A stretch of 64,000 nt of DNA from Escherichia coli. GTDB lineage: Bacteria; Pseudomonadota; Gammaproteobacteria; Enterobacterales; Enterobacteriaceae. Both the position numbers and the translations under genes were made by a program. Of this stretch, positions 3,596 through 50,386 are shown piece after piece; positions within the stretch are counted from its first letter, which is position 1, and every line of letters starts with the position of its first letter. The notes under the pieces were generated by a model. It saw only the letters and a program-made list of their open reading frames with translations. It did no database searches and had not been told where the DNA came from. The stretch lies in the NCBI RefSeq assembly GCF_003334785.1, contig NZ_QOWV01000002.1; one strand, given 5' to 3'.

Positions 3596-3638
3596 AAATC
3601 AGTGTATTGGTAGCTAAAAAGCCAGGGGCGGTAGCGTG
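3596..3638 (+). promoter_or_regulatory. JUMPStart element containing the ops motif GGCGGTAGCGTG (3627..3638) in the wza leader
   Basis: Exact ops 12-mer read in sequence, about 180 bp upstream of the wza start; same element repeated at 28098..28136. Confidence 0.8.
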
Positions 3639-11409: not shown

Positions 11410-12156
11410 ATGTTGCTTAGCATAATCACTGTCGCGTTTCGTAACCTCGAAGGGATAGTCAAAACACATGCCTCGCTGGCGCATCTGGCGCAGGCGGACG
11501 ATATCAGCTTCGAATGGATTGTTGTCGATGGCGGTTCCAACGACGGTACCCGTGAGTATCTGGAGAATCTCAATAGTATCTATAACCTACGCTTTGTCAG
11601 CGAGCCAGATAACGGTATCTACGACGCCATGAACAAGGGCATTGCGATGGCACAAGGCAAGTTCGCGTTGTTTCTCAACTCGGGCGATATTTTTCATCAG
11701 GATGCCGCAAATTTTGTTCGTAAGTTAAAAATGCAAAAAGATAACGTGATGATCACCGGCGATGCGCTGCTGGATTTTGGCGACGGGCATAAAATTAAGC
11801 GTAGTGCTAAACCGGGTTGGTATATTTATCACAGCCTGCCCGCCAGCCATCAGGCGATATTTTTCCCGGTATCCTGTTTGAAAAAATGGCGTTATGACCT
11901 GGAATATAAAGTTTCTTCTGATTACGCGCTGGCAGCTAAAATGTATAAAGCAGGTTATGCATTTAAAAAACTCAATGGCCTGGTGTCTGAATTTTCCATG
12001 GGTGGGGTATCAACCACCAATAATATGGAATTGTGTGCTGACGCCAAAAAAGTCCAACGGCAGATATTACATGTGCCTGGCTTCTGGGCAGAATTATCCT
12101 GGCATTTACGCCAGCGTACTACCTCAAAGACGAAAGCCTTATATAACAAAAGCTGA
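11410..12156 (+). CDS. wcaE: Colanic-acid glycosyltransferase WcaE (GT2)
   Basis: 248 aa; GT2 DGGSNDGT motif. Confidence 0.9.
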
Positions 12157-12157
12157 A

Positions 12158-12286
12158 TATACTCGTCATACTTCAAGTTGCATGTGCTGCGGATGCGTTC
12201 GTTCACCCCAGTCACTTACTTATGTAAGCTCCTGGGGATTCACTCTCTTGCCGCCTTCCTGCAACTCGAATTATTTAGAGTACATA
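12158..12286. repeat. ERIC / IRU element (enterobacterial repetitive intergenic consensus), reverse orientation
   Basis: Reverse complement of 12204..12245 reads gtgaatccccaggagcttacataagtaagtgactgggg, the ERIC core as recalled; imperfect palindrome fills the wcaE-wcaF gap. Confidence 0.7.
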
Positions 12287-12296
12287 AGGAAGACCA

Positions 12297-12845
12297 ATGC
12301 AAGATTTAAGCGGTTTCTCGGTGCCGAAAGGGTTCCGGGGCGGCAACGCTATTAAAGTGCAATTATGGTGGGCAGTACAGGCAACAATATTTGCCTGGTC
12401 GCCACAAGTATTGTATCGCTGGCGGGCATTTTTATTACGTTTATTCGGCGCAAAAATAGGAAAAAACGTAGTTATTCGTCCGTCAGTAAAAATTACCTAT
12501 CCGTGGAAATTAACCTTAGGTGATTACGCGTGGGTCGGCGATGACGTCAATTTATATACCCTCGGTGAAATAACCATTGGCGCACATTCGGTGATATCGC
12601 AAAAAAGTTATTTATGCACCGGTAGCCACGACCATGCAAGTCAACATTTCACCATTAACGCCACGCCTATTGTGATTGGCGAGAAATGCTGGCTGGCAAC
12701 CGATGTCTTTGTTGCCCCAGGCGTCACAATCGGCGACGGCACCGTCGTGGGTGCACGAAGCAGTGTTTTTAAATCGCTTCCGGCAAATGTGGTTTGCCGG
12801 GGGAATCCCGCAGTGGTGATACGCGAACGCGTTGAAACTGAATAA
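12297..12845 (+). CDS. wcaF: Colanic-acid acetyltransferase WcaF (hexapeptide-repeat)
   Basis: 182 aa; hexapeptide repeats. Confidence 0.9.
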   Translation: MQDLSGFSVPKGFRGGNAIKVQLWWAVQATIFAWSPQVLYRWRAFLLRLFGAKIGKNVVIRPSVKITYPWKLTLGDYAWVGDDVNLYTLGEITIGAHSVISQKSYLCTGSHDHASQHFTINATPIVIGEKCWLATDVFVAPGVTIGDGTVVGARSSVFKSLPANVVCRGNPAVVIRERVETE

Positions 12846-12870
12846 ATTCAAAAATACAGAGGAATAAGAC

Positions 12871-18215: not shown

Positions 18216-18293
18216 ACCGAGATGTAAATAACGACAAAAACAAAATTGGCCGTTTCGGTCAGGGCCAACTATTGCCTGAAAAAGGGTAACGAC

Positions 18294-19664
18294 ATGAAAA
18301 AATTAACCTGCTTTAAAGCCTATGATATTCGCGGGAAATTAGGCGAAGAACTGAATGAAGATATCGCCTGGCGCATTGGTCGCGCCTATGGCGAATTTCT
18401 CAAACCGAAAACCATTGTGTTAGGCGGTGATGTCCGTCTCACCAGCGAAACCTTAAAACTGGCGCTGGCAAAAGGTTTACAGGATGCGGGCGTTGACGTG
18501 TTGGATATTGGTATGTCCGGCACCGAAGAGATCTATTTCGCCACGTTCCATCTCGGCGTGGATGGCGGCATTGAAGTTACCGCCAGCCATAATCCGATGG
18601 ATTATAACGGCATGAAACTGGTGCGCGAAGGGGCTCGCCCAATCAGCGGTGATACCGGACTGCGCGACGTCCAGCGTCTGGCAGAAGCCAACGACTTTCC
18701 TCCCGTCGATGAAACCAAACGCGGTCGCTATCAGCAAATCAACCTGCGTGACGCTTACGTTGATCACCTGTTCGGTTATATCAATGTCAAAAACCTCACG
18801 CCGCTCAAGCTGGTGATCAACTCCGGGAACGGCGCAGCGGGTCCGGTGGTGGACGCTATCGAAGCCCGCTTTAAAGCCCTCGGCGCACCTGTGGAATTGA
18901 TCAAAGTGCACAACACGCCGGACGGCAATTTCCCCAACGGTATTCCTAACCCGCTGCTGCCGGAATGTCGCGACGACACCCGCAATGCGGTCATCAAACA
19001 CGGCGCGGATATGGGCATTGCCTTTGATGGCGATTTTGACCGCTGTTTTCTGTTTGACGAAAAAGGGCAGTTTATCGAGGGCTACTACATTGTCGGCCTG
19101 CTGGCAGAAGCGTTCCTCGAAAAAAATCCCGGCGCGAAGATCATCCACGATCCACGTCTCTCCTGGAACACCGTTGATGTGGTGACTGCCGCAGGTGGCA
19201 CGCCGGTAATGTCGAAAACCGGACACGCCTTTATTAAAGAACGTATGCGCAAGGAGGACGCCATCTACGGTGGCGAAATGAGCGCCCACCATTACTTCCG
19301 TGATTTCGCTTACTGCGACAGCGGCATGATCCCGTGGCTGCTGGTCGCCGAACTGGTGTGCCTGAAAGGAAAAACGCTGGGCGAACTGGTGCGCGACCGG
19401 ATGGCTGCGTTTCCGGCAAGCGGTGAGATCAACAGCAAACTGGCGCAACCCGTTGAGGCGATTAATCGCGTCGAACAGCATTTTAGCCGTGAGGCGCTGG
19501 CGGTGGATCGTACCGATGGCATCAGCATGACCTTTGCCGACTGGCGCTTTAACCTGCGCACCTCCAACACCGAACCGGTGGTGCGCCTGAATGTGGAATC
19601 GCGCGGTGATGTGCCGCTGATGGAAGCGCGAACGCGAACTCTGCTGACGTTGCTGAACGAGTAA
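18294..19664 (+). CDS. cpsG: Phosphomannomutase (colanic-acid copy)
   Basis: 456 aa from [14 protein letters not shown]; phosphohexomutase active-site region TASHNP. Confidence 0.95.
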
Positions 19665-22619: not shown

Positions 22620-22808
22620 TTGCCGGATGCGGCGTAAAACGCCTTATCCGTCCTACGGTTCTGTGCTCGGGACCTGTAGGCCTGATAAGACGCGTCAGCG
22701 TCGCATCAGGCACTGAATGCCGGATGCGGCGTGAACGCCTTATCCGGCCTACGGTTCTGTGCTCGGGTCTTGTAGGCCTGATAAGACGCGTCAGCGTCGC
22801 ATCAGGCA
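22620..22808. repeat. Tandem BIME: two near-identical units of about 100 bp, each with a pair of inverted REPs
   Basis: Motif gccggatgcggcgt.aacgccttatccg.cctacggttctgtgctcggg.cctgtaggcctgataagacgcgtcagcgtcgcatcaggca occurs twice in tandem. Confidence 0.75.
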
Positions 22809-26771: not shown

Positions 26772-26945
26772 ATTTGCGACCATTCCTGGAAAAATGGAGC
26801 CATACTTAGGAACAATGCTACTGCAATCCACAACGAAGCGGCGTAACATCACAAGTAATTCAGTAATCAATTCAGGGTAATTGATGCTGGCGAAAAAAAT
26901 CGAACAAGCTATAATTCAGCAACCATTTTACAGGTGGATGAAATA

Positions 26946-27839
26946 ATGACGAATTTAAAAGCAGTTATTCCTGTAGCGGGTCTTGGGATGCATATGTTGC
27001 CTGCCACTAAGGCGATTCCCAAAGAGATGCTACCGATCGTCGACAAGCCAATGATTCAGTACATTGTTGACGAGATTGTGGCTGCAGGGATCAAAGAAAT
27101 CCTCCTGGTAACTCATGCGTCCAAGAACGCGGTCGAAAACCACTTCGACACCTCTTATGAATTAGAATCTCTTCTTGAACTGCGCGTGAAGCGTCAACTA
27201 CTGGCGGAAGTTCAGTCCATCTGCCCGCCGGGCGTGACCATTATGAACGTACGTCAGGGCGAACCTTTAGGTTTAGGTCACTCCATTTTGTGTGCACGAC
27301 CCGCCATTGGTGACAACCCATTTGTCGTGGTGCTGCCAGACGTTGTGATCGACGACGCCAGTGCCGACCCGCTGCGCTACAACCTTGCAGCCATGATTGC
27401 GCGCTTCAACGAAACGGGCCGCAGCCAGGTGCTGGCAAAACGTATGCCGGGTGACCTCTCTGAATACTCCGTCATTCAGACCAAAGAACCACTGGATCGT
27501 GAAGGTAAAGTCAGCCGCATTGTTGAATTTATCGAAAAACCGGATCAGCCGCAGACGCTGGATTCAGACATCATGGCCGTTGGTCGCTATGTGCTTTCTG
27601 CAGATATTTGGCCGGAACTTGAACGCACTCAGCCTGGTGCATGGGGGCGTATTCAGCTGACTGATGCCATCGCTGAACTGGCGAAAAAACAGTCTGTTGA
27701 TGCCATGCTGATGACAGGTGACAGCTACGACTGCGGTAAAAAAATGGGTTATATGCAGGCATTTGTGAAGTATGGACTACGCAACCTGAAAGAAGGGGCG
27801 AAGTTCCGTAAAGGTATTGAGAAGCTGTTAAGCGAATAA
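26946..27839 (+). CDS. galF: UTP-glucose-1-phosphate uridylyltransferase paralog GalF
   Basis: Start at [14 protein letters not shown]; flanks the O-antigen cluster. Confidence 0.9.
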
Positions 27840-28097
27840 TGAAAATCTGACCGAATGTAACGGTTGATAAGAAAATTATAACGGCAGTGAAGATTCGTGG
27901 CGAAAGTAATTTGCTGCGAATATTCCTGCCGTTGTTTTATATAAACAATCAGAATAACAACGAGTTAGCAATAGGATTTTAGTCAAAGATTTCCAGGATT
28001 TTCCTTGTTTCCAGAGCGGATTGGTAAGACAATTAGCGTTTGAATTTTTCGGGTTTAGCGCGAGTGGGTAACGCTCGTCACATCGTAGACATGCATG

Positions 28098-28136
28098 CAG
28101 TGCTCTGGTAGCTGTAAAGCCAGGGGCGGTAGCGTG
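28098..28136 (+). promoter_or_regulatory. JUMPStart element with ops motif GGCGGTAGCGTG (28125..28136) upstream of the O-antigen operon
   Basis: cagtgctctggtagctgtaaagccaggggcggtagcgtg read directly; near-repeat of 3596..3638. Confidence 0.85.
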
Positions 28137-28195
28137 CTGAAATTATAAAGTCATTCTTATAGAACATCGCATTTCAATAATATAATTACACCTAA

Positions 28196-37582: not shown

Positions 37583-38953
37583 ATGTCGAGTTTAACCTGC
37601 TTTAAAGCCTATGATATTCGCGGGAAATTAGGCGAAGAACTGAATGAAGATATCGCCTGGCGTATTGGGCGTGCCTATGGCGAATTTCTCAAACCGAAAA
37701 CCATTGTGTTAGGCGGTGACGTCCGCCTCACCAGCGAAACCTTAAAACTGGCGCTGGCGAGAGGTTTACAGGATGCGGGCGTCGATGTGCTGGATATCGG
37801 CATGTCCGGCACCGAAGAGATCTATTTCGCCACGTTCCATCTCGGCGTGGATGGCGGCATCGAAGTTACCGCCAGCCATAATCCGATGGATTATAACGGC
37901 ATGAAGCTGGTTCGCGAGGGGGCTCGCCCGATCAGCGGAGATACCGGACTGCGCGACGTCCAGCGTCTGGCTGAAGCCAACGACTTTCCTCCCGTCGATG
38001 AAACCAAACGCGGTCGCTATCAGCAAATCAACCTGCGTGACGCTTACGTTGATCACCTGTTCGGTTATATCAATGTCAAAAACCTCACGCCGCTCAAGCT
38101 GGTGATCAACTCCGGGAACGGCGCAGCGGGTCCGGTGGTGGACGCTATCGAAGCCCGCTTTAAAGCCCTCGGCGCACCTGTGGAATTGATCAAAGTGCAC
38201 AACACGCCGGACGGCAATTTCCCCAACGGTATTCCTAACCCGCTGCTGCCGGAATGTCGCGACGACACCCGCAATGCGGTCATCAAACACGGCGCGGATA
38301 TGGGCATTGCCTTTGATGGCGATTTTGACCGCTGTTTTCTGTTTGACGAAAAAGGGCAGTTTATCGAGGGCTACTACATTGTCGGCCTGCTGGCAGAAGC
38401 GTTCCTCGAAAAAAATCCCGGCGCGAAGATCATCCACGATCCACGTCTCTCCTGGAACACCGTTGATGTGGTGACTGCCGCAGGTGGCACGCCGGTAATG
38501 TCGAAAACCGGACACGCCTTTATTAAAGAACGTATGCGCAAGGAGGACGCCATCTACGGTGGCGAAATGAGCGCCCACCATTACTTCCGTGATTTCGCTT
38601 ACTGCGACAGCGGCATGATCCCGTGGCTGCTGGTCGCCGAACTGGTGTGCCTGAAAGAGAAAACGCTGGGCGAACTGGTACGCGACCGGATGGCGGCGTT
38701 TCCGGCAAGCGGTGAGATCAACAGCAAACTGGCGCAACCCGTTGAGGCGATTAACCGCGTGGAACAGCATTTTAGCCGTGAGGCGCTGGCGGTGGATCGC
38801 ACCGATGGCATCAGCATGACCTTTGCCGACTGGCGCTTTAACCTGCGCTCCTCCAACACCGAACCGGTGGTGCGCCTGAATGTGGAATCGCGCGGTGATG
38901 TGCCGCTGATGGAAGAAAAGACAAAACTTATCCTTGCGTTATTGAACAAGTAA
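37583..38953 (+). CDS. manB: Phosphomannomutase (O-antigen copy)
   Basis: 456 aa; DNA nearly identical to cpsG across most of its length. Confidence 0.95.
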
Positions 38954-50234: not shown

Positions 50235-50272
50235 CAATAAAAAAGCCCCCGGAAGGTGATCTTCCGGGGGCT
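50235..50272 (-). terminator. his attenuator terminator hairpin
   Basis: Minus strand reads agcccccggaag-atcac-cttccgggggc followed by UUUUUUAUU, between hisL and hisG. Confidence 0.85.
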
Positions 50273-50335
50273 TTCTCATGCGTTCATGCACCACTGGAAG
50301 ATCTGAATGTCTTCCAGCACACATCGCCTGAAAGA

Positions 50336-50386
50336 CTAGTCAGGATGATGGTGATGATGGTGGTGTTTAAATTGAACGCGTGTCAT
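50336..50386 (-). CDS. hisL: his operon leader peptide (MTRVQFKHHHHHHHPD)
   Basis: Minus-strand 16-codon ORF with seven consecutive His codons upstream of the attenuator. Confidence 0.9.
   Translation of the reverse strand: MTRVQFKHHHHHHHPD

Follow-up and report, generated by a model that had tools for sequence, protein, structure and literature searches.

A Rare ERIC Insertion Between wcaE and wcaF in the Colanic Acid Operon of Escherichia coli

Introduction

In Escherichia coli K-12 the genes wcaE and wcaF of the colanic acid (wca, or cps) operon are separated by a spacer of 15 nt. In the strain considered here (contig NZ_QOWV01000002.1 of assembly GCF_003334785.1, of which a stretch of 64,000 nucleotides, referred to below as the window, was analysed) the gap between these genes is 140 nt long and is largely occupied by a palindrome. 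This raises the questions of what the palindrome is, how it came to lie between two genes of one operon, and what it may do to the transcript that runs through it. The original prediction for this locus was of an ERIC repeat that could modulate mRNA stability or polarity between the two halves of the operon.

The ERIC, IRU or RU-1 elements of Enterobacteriaceae were reportedly characterized by Sharples and Lloyd in 1990, Hulton and co-workers in 1991, and Wilson and Sharp in 2006. To our knowledge, no transposase is known for these elements. The effects of ERICs within operons have so far been studied mainly in Yersinia, and De Gregorio and colleagues are said to have described, in 2005, orientation-dependent ERICs adjoining stop codons in Yersinia enterocolitica. 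Among the papers searched, none connects ERIC with wcaE or wcaF.

Identity and Boundaries of the Element

There is almost no doubt that positions 12158–12284 are a genuine ERIC, a miniature inverted-repeat element of 127 bp. Compared over all 127 positions and without gaps, it agrees at 112 with the E. coli RU-1/ERIC consensus as printed by Delihas (PMC2759123), at 117 with the SeRU-1 sequence of Salmonella enterica, and at 121 with the consensus of six unrelated E. coli ERIC copies, where shuffled controls gave a mean of 64 and a maximum of 77; poor alignment over the 127 bp was not seen. The ERIC-PCR primers, whose sequences were verified against PMC3696847, match at 22 of 22 nucleotides for ERIC1R (12222–12243, plus strand) and 21 of 22 for ERIC2 (12200–12221, minus strand), and shuffles of the window had no match to either. 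The principal features of the locus, and of the operon leader, are the following.

12158–12284, minus strand: full-length ERIC/IRU (RU-1) element, 127 bp, from alignments and primer matches
12158–12183: left terminal inverted repeat, TATACTCGTCATACTTCAAGTTGCAT, 5′ arm of the outer stem in the mRNA, from an inverted-repeat search
12259–12284: right terminal inverted repeat, CTGCAACTCGAATTATTTAGAGTACA, 3′ arm of the outer stem
12206–12237: central conserved inverted repeat, CCCCAGTCACTTAC / GTAAGCTCCTGGGG with loop TTAT, target of the ERIC-PCR primers
12154–12156, plus strand: wcaE stop codon TGA, 1 nt upstream of the left end of the ERIC
12285–12286: TA to the right of the element, candidate target-site duplication with the TA at 12158–12159 or 12160–12161
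12286–12299, plus strand: wcaF Shine-Dalgarno AAGGAAG (12286–12292), spacer and ATG (12297–12299), retained from the original spacer and not part of the ERIC
12268–12272, plus strand: RNase E-type motif RNWUU, here GAAUU, in the AU-rich part of the 3′ arm, from a motif scan
12255–12260, plus strand: anti-Shine-Dalgarno-like CUUCCU, perfect complement of wcaF AGGAAG (12287–12292), from constrained folds
3600–3638, plus strand: JUMPstart with ops (GGCGGTAGCGTG, 3627–3638), upstream of wza; Rfam RF01707, 57.3 bits

The canonical orientation of the core, as used by Hulton and in ERIC-PCR, is on the minus strand; the wca mRNA (plus strand) holds the reverse complement, as does the sequence that Delihas printed in 2007 (PMC2759123). 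The 38-nt core quoted in the original prediction is the exact reverse complement of 12206–12243, and the coordinates and primers agree with its placement of the element inside the operon between wcaE and wcaF, with the canonical consensus on the minus strand. It had also described the whole gap, 12158–12286, as a palindrome. The palindrome is real, but it occupies 127 of the 140 nt between the end of wcaE at 12156 and the start of wcaF at 12297 (gap 12157–12296). The last 12 nt, 12285–12296 (TAAGGAAGACCA), are the original Shine-Dalgarno and spacer of wcaF, so that the right end of the ERIC lies 12 nt before the ATG and the Shine-Dalgarno is intact. The inverted repeats were computed as 12157–12182/12260–12285 and 12206–12219/12224–12237.

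In structure the copy does not differ from the rest of the family. It shares the length, the termini (TATAC...GTATA), the central inverted repeat, the TA at the insertion site, the extragenic position and the occurrence in multiple copies per genome, with full-length identities of 88–95%, and its central core is invariant in seven E. coli copies. Its left end is TATAC; its right end, GTACA, is one substitution from the family GTATA, and the same ends were found in 24 distinct metagenomic sites. Six substitutions are private to the wcaE-wcaF copy (12192G, 12193A, 12202T, 12246T, 12251C and 12283C); the last of these, C for the T of other copies, lies in the right terminal TA. The family is dispersed: copies occur in each of the 5,426 E. 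coli genomes (median 11 BLAST places), those at six unrelated intergenic loci of E. coli were sampled, and further copies lie on plasmids of Salmonella, Escherichia and Klebsiella.

At gathering thresholds Rfam has no family at the wcaE-wcaF site. When the threshold was relaxed, only V_AS5 (RF02818, Vibrio RNA AS5) matched, and it aligned significantly over its full length (model 1–129) with 12163–12285 on the minus strand, which is opposite to the wca mRNA. The long-hairpin architecture is the same, but the score of 43.3 bits (E 1.4e-8) is far under the gathering score of 96, and by the Rfam standard the element is not a member. ERIC relatives are known in vibrios.

REP and BIME elements are likewise structured extragenic repeats, and they are tolerated in the same operon, but their sequence is unrelated, their stems are shorter and GC-rich, and they are mobilized differently, by RAYT transposases. 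The REP consensus (a palindromic unit of the GCCGGATG...CATCCGGC type) is absent from 12157–12296, and the naRNA4/REP model has no match in 12100–12350. That model does match 22679–22749 of the window, an naRNA4-type REP pair in the wzxC-wcaK gap. The ERIC identity itself is nothing new: this is a long-known repeat in an unusual and experimentally convenient place.

Insertion Polymorphism and Origin

The original prediction had taken the ERIC as belonging to the colanic acid operon in general. It proved to be a rare allele. Its left junction occurs in 92 of 5,426 complete E. coli genomes and its right junction likewise in 92, a frequency of 1.7%, or less than 2% of genomes. The strain ATCC 8739 is a carrier. 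The site is empty, with a spacer of 15 nt, in approximately 4,600 genomes; strains E3, 8FA and K-12 MG1655 have this spacer, and precise removal of the ERIC would restore TGAATATAAGGAAGACCAATG. Comparison of the empty allele (GAATATAAGG) with the filled one (GAATATAC...GTACATAAGG) gives a net gain of 125 bp at the target ATATAA. A duplication of TA is compatible in two registers, one of which requires that T at 12283 was later replaced by C; the target TATA leaves the register ambiguous.

All 92 filled copies are at least 99% identical, and across the 5,426 E. coli genomes no ERIC with this degree of identity was seen at another locus. The best full-length plasmid copies, among the matches listed, are 96.8% identical, and one plasmid record beyond these reaches at least 99%; the best match in a phage collection is 92.8% and the best metagenomic match is 97.6%. 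No near-identical source copy was found in E. coli. Since the filled copies are so closely alike and no such copy was seen at other loci, the wcaE-wcaF ERIC copies are probably of single origin.

The ERIC would have entered a TA of the ancestral 15-nt spacer in one E. coli lineage, and we hold with strong confidence that the site has gained rather than lost an element. An ERIC present in the E. coli ancestor and then precisely excised in about 98% of lineages is extremely improbable: the 15-nt spacer occurs with identical sequence in outgroups (Escherichia whittamii, Citrobacter, Enterobacter, Lelliottia and others), all the copies are nearly identical, excision would have had to be exact and to occur many times, and nothing specific speaks for it except that no empty allele comes closer than 2 differences in 120 nt to the flank haplotypes of carriers. 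A search for the exact empty haplotype of the progenitor did not find it, all matches of at least 99% to the 120-nt excised query being filled sites. At 12292 the carriers have G and K-12 has A.

The window and ATCC 8739 are collinear and 2.0% different over 26.8 kb, yet they are identical across 12064–12867. From this contrast it appears that, after the insertion, homologous recombination would have carried the allele into diverged wca backgrounds.

The Same Spacer in Other Enterobacteriaceae

Spacers of 9–23 nt containing ATATAAGGA are found in most of 80 species of Enterobacteriaceae, Escherichia whittamii included, and this motif is conserved across the family. Phytobacter and Kosakonia have ERIC-like elements between wcaE and wcaF, in the orientation opposite to that of the E. 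coli copy, and Buttiauxella, Cedecea and Dryocola have REP elements there. Structured repeats have entered this spacer in at least three independent events, and it is a recurrent landing site across Enterobacteriaceae. Such repeated occupation may reflect tolerance, target preference or selection.

Transcription and RNA Folding

Because the ERIC sits inside the single wca operon driven by RcsAB and RfaH, it is very probably co-transcribed within the polycistronic mRNA. JUMPstart/ops is a target of RfaH antitermination (PMC9976346), and, judged by its leader, the transcript on which the ERIC lies is a predicted RfaH target. All 20 wca genes are intact in one carrier. Scans for promoters and terminators found nothing in the ERIC and no terminator-like site in 11900–12600, and terminator and outward-promoter roles were dropped. 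The stem is not followed by a U-run, the sequence there being CAUAAGGAAGACC / CATAAGGAAGACC.

A strong stem-loop had been foreseen for the RNA. The hairpin predicted for the mRNA strand is of moderate stability, with -40.3 kcal/mol (z -3.05). The opposite strand folds at -54.4 kcal/mol (z -5.35), and the mRNA orientation is the weaker folder. Among 25 ERIC copies 96% of cells are paired and 17 of 30 pairs have compensatory changes, a level of covariation attained in none of 500 shuffles; the innermost helices in this sample were to some extent imposed by the search pattern with which the copies were gathered, and the outer helices also have compensatory changes.

In a context of 340 nt the global minimum-energy fold drops the full outer stem, and when the nucleotides just after the wcaE stop are blocked, the 3′ arm of the ERIC is released. 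Ensemble opening energies for wcaF, with the element in place and after excision in silico, are 8.15 and 7.42 kcal/mol from the Shine-Dalgarno to the AUG, a difference of less than 1, and 9.13 and 9.60 kcal/mol from the Shine-Dalgarno to +16. The predicted accessibility of the wcaF ribosome-binding site is essentially the same with or without the ERIC, and occlusion of this site as the main effect was discarded on the difference of less than 1 kcal/mol.

A Possible Effect on mRNA Decay

The nearest parallel is with the ERICs of Yersinia enterocolitica. Both lie inside an operon, between neighbouring genes and immediately past a stop codon, here with the wcaE TGA at 12154–12156 and the element starting at 12158. 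The 3′ terminal repeat of the wca transcript also has an AU-rich candidate RNase E-type site, a likeness at the level of the motif, and constrained folds predict that terminating ribosomes may open the hairpin, as in the Yersinia model. The Yersinia consensus differs in sequence, and the likeness is known from reviews and, for the present copy, from sequence. According to those reviews, Yersinia ERICs adjoining stop codons alter the relative abundance of flanking transcripts, and the effect ascribed to stop-adjacent ERICs is destabilization, not stabilization (PMC2229807; PMC3184786; PMC10969869; PMC3049150). It is through this Yersinia model, as the reviews summarize it, that the GAAUU motif acquires its relevance. 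RNWUU is a short motif with a chance expectation of about 1 per 64 nt; the motif scan gave a second match, GGAUU at 12236–12240, and none on the opposite strand.

By analogy, the following sequence of events may be proposed. The ERIC would be transcribed in its less stably folding orientation, which puts GAAUU in the 3′ arm. At the wcaE stop, 1 nt before the left arm, terminating ribosomes would hold the outer stem open and bare the 3′ arm, and endonucleolytic processing at the ERIC would then cause the wza-wcaE segment to decay somewhat faster than wcaF-wcaM. Transcription through the ERIC would not be terminated, nor would translation of wcaF be blocked. On this analogy the element would most likely cause a mild shift, dependent on orientation, in the relative mRNA decay of the two halves of the operon, with a neutral passenger almost as likely. 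That the change would be large enough to measure, with wza-wcaE decaying faster than wcaF-wcaM, is put forward tentatively, with rather more doubt than belief. The account as a whole, of ERIC insertion, spread by recombination and processing of the transcript at the element, is favoured with some reserve. The suggestion that the ERIC could modulate mRNA stability is plausible from the Yersinia analogy and the anatomy of the copy.

Three other E. coli ERICs, at cusC-cusF, ybhI-ybhJ and ubiV-yhbW, resemble the wcaE-wcaF copy: they are 94–95% identical to it, lie between codirectional genes 0–5 nt past the stop codon, and have the same orientation to the upstream gene. These insertions are common (the ybhI junction occurs in 5,307 of 5,426 genomes and the cusC junction in at least 1,606) in contrast to the wcaE junction. 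From six annotated E. coli loci it looked as if stop-adjacent ERICs shared this orientation. The 24 distinct metagenomic sites, whose ORFs were called crudely, did not repeat the rule: stop-adjacent elements were divided 2 against 2 in orientation, and codirectional sites numbered 2 '++' against 4 '--'. Since the Phytobacter/Kosakonia element runs the opposite way, no single orientation is required at wcaE-wcaF. These observations, the shortness of RNWUU and the 340-nt fold weigh against the proposed decay effect.

Alternative Explanations

The ERIC may be a neutral passenger, co-transcribed without measurable effect on wca mRNA, wcaF translation or colanic acid output, and persisting through drift and hitch-hiking in a recombination-rich region beside the O-antigen locus. 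This is a serious contender, which we hold at somewhat less than even strength. The low frequency of the allele and the intact downstream genes fit neutrality equally well, and it is favoured further by the integrity of all wca genes in a carrier, the retained Shine-Dalgarno with its essentially unchanged predicted opening energy, the lack of promoter and terminator signatures, and the occurrence of both orientations at this site in different genera. It is weakened by the shifts in flanking transcript ratios reported in reviews for stop-adjacent ERICs of Yersinia (PMC2229807; PMC3184786; PMC10969869; PMC3049150), and by the fact that the same 15-nt spacer was struck at least three times.

A stabilizing role of the kind associated with REP elements is unlikely. 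The hairpin would block 3′-to-5′ exonucleases, and wza-wcaE would be protected after cleavage downstream and would accumulate. A long stem-loop is indeed predicted on the mRNA strand, REP elements occupy this spacer in Buttiauxella, Cedecea and Dryocola, and MITE stem-loops can stabilize co-transcribed mRNA, according to reviews. Yet the mRNA orientation is the one that folds less stably, ribosomes terminating 1 nt away should melt the outer stem, and reviews credit stop-adjacent ERICs with destabilization.

It is more doubtful still that the element modulates wcaF translation. With the outer stem open, CUUCCU would pair with AGGAAG and tie wcaF initiation to wcaE translation; the insertion would also have ended any coupling permitted by the 15-nt spacer. 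The perfect 6-bp complement lies 26 nt away and is formed in constrained folds with the outer stem held open, and the carrier G at 12292, for which K-12 has A, extends the complementarity; the pairing is speculative. Against it, the opening energies of the ribosome-binding site ensemble do not change with the element, CCUUCC is invariant in all ERIC copies whatever their context, so that a match to a purine-rich Shine-Dalgarno is expected by chance, and AAGGAAG is also present in the empty spacer of another species (L022).

Polarity, the other effect that had been suggested, is improbable: terminator-like sites were not found, the stem lacks a following U-tract, and the operon has JUMPstart/ops for RfaH antitermination. 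A transcriptional attenuator, at which the hairpin would pause or terminate RNA polymerase and lower wcaF-wcaM, is very unlikely, in spite of the large stem-loop in an intercistronic gap and the attenuation of transcription within operons by some BIMEs (noted in a review); the downstream genes, moreover, hold essential steps of the pathway (gmd, fcl and wcaJ) and are intact in carriers.

Significance

The wcaE-wcaF ERIC provides a natural experiment. In about 90 sequenced strains, the widely used ATCC 8739 among them, an ERIC lies between two genes of a well-characterized single-promoter operon, and in thousands more the 15-nt site is cleanly empty, which makes possible an isogenic-style test in E. 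coli of the influence of an intra-operonic ERIC on mRNA decay and translation. Carrier strains would also gain an extra priming site in ERIC-PCR.

There is a slim chance that insertions in this spacer are selected, in that they uncouple the mRNA abundance or translation of wza-wcaE, the export and polymerase block, from wcaF-wcaM, the sugar-nucleotide and assembly block. If this were true, the E. coli allele would be an adaptive regulatory variant spread by recombination, not a passenger. The allele represents a clear gain of an ERIC within E. coli, followed by spread through recombination, and it bears on the current mobility of these elements.

The wca cluster and its wcaE-wcaF gap

A complete E. 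coli colanic-acid (wca/cps) cluster lies on the + strand of the window. The cluster has been described as a single operon of ~24 kb, activated by RcsA/RcsB, with JUMPstart-RfaH antitermination (PMC9976346). E. coli ATCC 8739 and the window are collinear over 26.8 kb, with 97.97% identity and no gaps, so that the gene coordinates of ATCC 8739 transfer directly; the two strains are nevertheless distinct. All 20 wca genes are intact in one carrier of the insertion described below.

Features of the window
3600-3638, + strand, JUMPstart/ops, with GGCGGTAGCGTG at 3627-3638 (Rfam search and sequence)
3817-26771, + strand, wza to wcaM, downstream of JUMPstart/ops
11410-12156, + strand, wcaE (gene coordinates)
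12157-12296, wcaE-wcaF gap, 140 nt
12297-12845, + strand, wcaF (gene coordinates)
50237-50360, - strand, his leader (Rfam search)
52658-52732, + strand, STnc240 (Rfam search)

Gaps between wca genes are mostly ≤10 nt, that between wcaE and wcaF being among the exceptions. In addition to the repeat described below, the wca transcript tolerates a second structured repeat, a REP pair (22679-22749, - strand; Rfam naRNA4 model, 79.7 bits) within the 275-nt wzxC-wcaK gap. The 192-nt cpsB-cpsG gap holds an algC RNA motif (18240-18289, + strand; Rfam, 78.2 bits) just upstream of the phosphomannomutase gene. Past wcaM follow galF, the O-antigen cluster with a second JUMPstart, and the his leader. The second JUMPstart (28098-28136, + strand, 60 bits) is near the end of galF (approximately 26928-28137) and presumably heads the O-antigen operon. 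In the O-antigen region a phosphomannomutase-like segment (37592-38915) is 97% identical to cpsG of ATCC 8739 (18303-19626); the window thus has cpsG/manB paralogues ~19 kb apart, a potential recombination substrate.

Identity and boundaries of the ERIC element

The original prediction recognized an ERIC repeat by a 38-nt core, which is the exact reverse complement of window 12206-12243. PCR primers, E. coli copies and the published consensus all match at 12158-12284, and the identification is upheld. The standard ERIC-PCR primers (sequences as given in PMC3696847) match 22/22 at 12222-12243 (+) and 21/22 at 12200-12221 (-), with no matches in dinucleotide shuffles of the window; primer matching finds no other copy in the 64 kb. 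Comparison with six copies from unrelated E. coli loci (prfH-GNAT, psuT-yeiL, ybhI-ybhJ, DUF6708-ilvN, cusC-cusF and ubiV-yhbW) gave a common block of exactly 127 bp, TATAC...GTACA, at 12158-12284, which agrees with the consensus of those six at 121/127 positions. Poor full-length alignment, named earlier as what would refute the identification, is not what is seen: with the sequences in Table 1a of Delihas 2007 (PMC2759123) the element scores 112/127 to the E. coli RU-1/ERIC consensus and 117/127 to a Salmonella copy, both gap-free over all 127 positions (shuffled controls, mean 64, maximum 77). The wcaE-wcaF element has every sequence and structural feature of ERIC/IRU that could be tested.

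The palindrome had been taken to fill the whole gap. It fills most of it; outside lie the single nucleotide 12157, which separates the end of wcaE from the left end of ERIC, and the last 12 nt, TAAGGAAGACCA, which are the original wcaF Shine-Dalgarno sequence and spacer.

The ERIC region is open in two + strand frames (12157-12300). One would encode YTRHTSSCMCCGCVRSPQSLTYVSSWGFTLLPPSCNSNYLEY, which is the RU-1 peptide of Delihas 2007, and the frame continuing from wcaE beyond its TGA is open for ~47 codons; these are predicted ORFs only. At the DUF6708-ilvN locus, AATAATTCGAGTTACAG (L007:581-600, coordinates of that locus) lies directly 5' of the full ERIC; it is the reverse complement of a right-arm segment, and so part of another ERIC copy, inverted and adjoining the full one.

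A rare insertion allele

With a 1.5-kb wcaE-wcaF query, most E. coli genomes match in two pieces whose span is ~125 bp shorter than the query. The spacer is 15 nt in strains E3, 8FA and K-12 MG1655. Alignment of the empty sequence, ...CTGAATATAAGGAA..., with the filled one, ...CTGAATATAC[ERIC]GTACATAAGGAA..., gives a net gain of 125 bp at TA within ATATAA. This appears to fit the duplication of TA that reviews describe for ERICs, the TATA target leaving the register ambiguous. The element behaves as a miniature inverted-repeat transposable element, with occupied and empty sites.

The left junction (wcaE end and ERIC left end) was covered in 92 of 5,426 complete E. coli genomes, and a more sensitive search for the right junction returned the same 92; K-12 and O157:H7 match in the wcaF part alone. 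Since the wcaE-wcaF junction is present in 4,724 genomes, ERIC occupies ~1.9% of these, and is a rare insertion allele. By megablast, which may undercount sites with diverged flanks, 5,307 genomes have the ybhI-ERIC junction and at least 1,606 have the cusC-ERIC junction.

A spacer of 9-23 nt is the rule among 80 Enterobacteriaceae species with a wcaF orthologue (Escherichia whittamii, Citrobacter, Enterobacter, Lelliottia, Kosakonia and Kluyvera among them), and it usually keeps the motif ATATAAGGA. The short state is therefore ancestral and ERIC a gain.

Origin and recombinational spread

The ≥99% identity of all filled copies (93 records) to the window ERIC points to one common origin. At other loci in the 5,426 genomes, no copy of such identity was seen. 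The best full-length plasmid match among the matches listed was 96.8%; one plasmid record has a ≥99% match, probably partial. The best match was 92.8% in the phage collection and 97.6% in metagenomes. A search for the exact empty progenitor haplotype gave none, all ≥99% matches to the in-silico excised 120-mer being filled sites.

Two carriers, the window strain and ATCC 8739, are 2% diverged across the wca cluster and differ in gene content past wcaM. Window 12064-12867 is identical in the two, where ~16 differences would be expected; this 804-nt block comprises the end of wcaE, ERIC and all of wcaF, and divergence is 3% just upstream in wcaE. Such identity amid ~2% divergence indicates that the ERIC-bearing segment was exchanged by homologous recombination, and by sequence comparison a recombination mosaic surrounds the insertion in this pair.

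The same spacer in other genera

The spacer is 146-147 nt in Phytobacter diazotrophicus (L060:1853-2001), P. ursingii (L069:1854-2001) and Kosakonia sp. S29 (L065:1854-2001). It holds an oppositely oriented ERIC-family element, ~72% identical and alignable over its full length, which is therefore an independent insertion at the wcaE-wcaF site. In Buttiauxella, Cedecea and Dryocola, spacers of 53-93 nt with GTAGGYCGGATAAGCG...CATCCGRC contain a REP palindromic unit (compare the naRNA4 consensus).

REP-filled spacers of Buttiauxella, Cedecea and Dryocola (locus coordinates)
L074:907-961
L081:1946-2001
L083:1912-2001
L086:1907-2001
L087:1933-2001

Other ERIC sequences were seen near wca genes. 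In the wcaD-wcaE junction region of Citrobacter amalonaticus an internally deleted copy, only the two terminal parts, lies ~20 bp before the start of wcaE (L013:1135-1193). An ERIC-like stretch follows wcaF in a metagenome-assembled genome of Citrobacter (L014:2599-2660), and Enterobacter mori has an 81%-identical copy at the locus edge (L022:2-81).

Structure of the element

Inverted-repeat search
12157-12182 and 12260-12285, outer arms
12206-12219 and 12224-12237, core arms

The mRNA (+) strand has a predicted fold of -40.3 kcal/mol (z -3.05; 1/200 shuffles as good) compared to -54.4 kcal/mol (z -5.35) for the opposite strand; the wca transcript thus has the weaker-folding orientation. In 25 diverse ERIC copies (E. 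coli, metagenomic, and Phytobacter/Kosakonia relatives) 96% of cells in the consensus hairpin are paired, the innermost helices being partly fixed by the collection pattern. Compensatory double changes occur in 17/30 pairs, a number reached by 0/500 shuffles, and the signal is lost when pairing partners are slid by 1-3 columns. At the level of aligned sequences, this covariation confirms the palindromic architecture of the family, with constraint on RNA and on DNA (terminal inverted repeat) not separable.

Rfam at gathering thresholds has no ERIC family at the site. With thresholds relaxed, the model of the Vibrio antisense RNA V_AS5 aligns over its full length to 12163-12285 on the minus strand (43.3 bits, E 1.4e-8). 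Membership is rejected at a gathering score of 96; the sub-threshold match is consistent with ERIC relatives in vibrios.

Possible effects on the wca mRNA

A promoter/terminator scan found neither a sigma-70-like promoter nor a terminator-like site in ERIC, and the sequence downstream is CAUAAGGAAGACC, not a U-run. We infer that ERIC is co-transcribed with the wca genes, without terminating the transcript. The insertion leaves the Shine-Dalgarno sequence and ATG of wcaF unaltered. Predicted opening energies in the filled and in-silico excised forms are 8.15 and 7.42 kcal/mol from Shine-Dalgarno to AUG, and 9.13 and 9.60 kcal/mol from Shine-Dalgarno to +16. As these are <1 kcal/mol apart, simple occlusion of the ribosome-binding site is not predicted.

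According to four reviews, ERICs of Yersinia that are co-transcribed reduce the level of upstream transcript when in one orientation; ribosomes keep the hairpin from forming and expose an RNase E site in a terminal repeat (PMC2229807, PMC3184786, PMC10969869, PMC3049150). The anatomy of the wcaE-wcaF ERIC fits this review-level model of stop-adjacent ERICs. The left arm begins 1 nt past the wcaE stop codon, and in constrained folds blocking the first 10-16 nt after the stop frees the 3' arm. RNase E-type motifs (RNWUU) are on the mRNA strand only: one, GAAUU, in the AU-rich 3' arm (12268-12272), and another, GGAUU, at 12236-12240. Three further E. coli ERICs (ybhI-ybhJ, cusC-cusF and ubiV-yhbW) lie 0-5 nt after a stop codon in the same orientation. 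Because of this anatomy, the folds, the motifs and the other stop-adjacent copies we tentatively favor, as possible rather than probable, a mild translation-dependent processing and decay at ERIC, which would lower wza-wcaE mRNA relative to wcaF-wcaM. However, 24 distinct metagenomic sites did not bear out the orientation preference, RNWUU is short, and the Phytobacter insertion is oppositely oriented.

That ERIC is a neutral passenger without effect is a serious possibility, if short of an even chance; the low allele frequency fits it equally well. Two minor alternatives are a REP-like barrier to 3' exonuclease at ERIC, and anti-Shine-Dalgarno pairing of ERIC CUUCCU (12255-12260) with wcaF AGGAAG (12287-12292). 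Such pairing is seen in constrained folds and would be lengthened by the G at 12292, where carriers have AAGGAAG and K-12 AAGGAAA in the wcaF Shine-Dalgarno region; the G may, however, be coincidental, as AAGGAAG is also found in the empty spacer of E. mori. Transcriptional polarity at ERIC, suggested earlier, is unlikely, with no terminator-like site or U-run and JUMPstart/ops present.

Significance

Strain-specific ERIC sites in E. coli have been reported, with 14 extra sites in a review, and the family itself is long known; what is new here is the site. The literature searched did not mention ERIC together with wcaE or wcaF, and the site appears to be empty in the strains analyzed in 2006 (K-12, O157 and B2 types). 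The filled and empty alleles form a natural pair usable to test the effect of an intra-operonic ERIC in E. coli, and the wcaE-wcaF element is evidence for ERIC gain and recombinational spread within the species.
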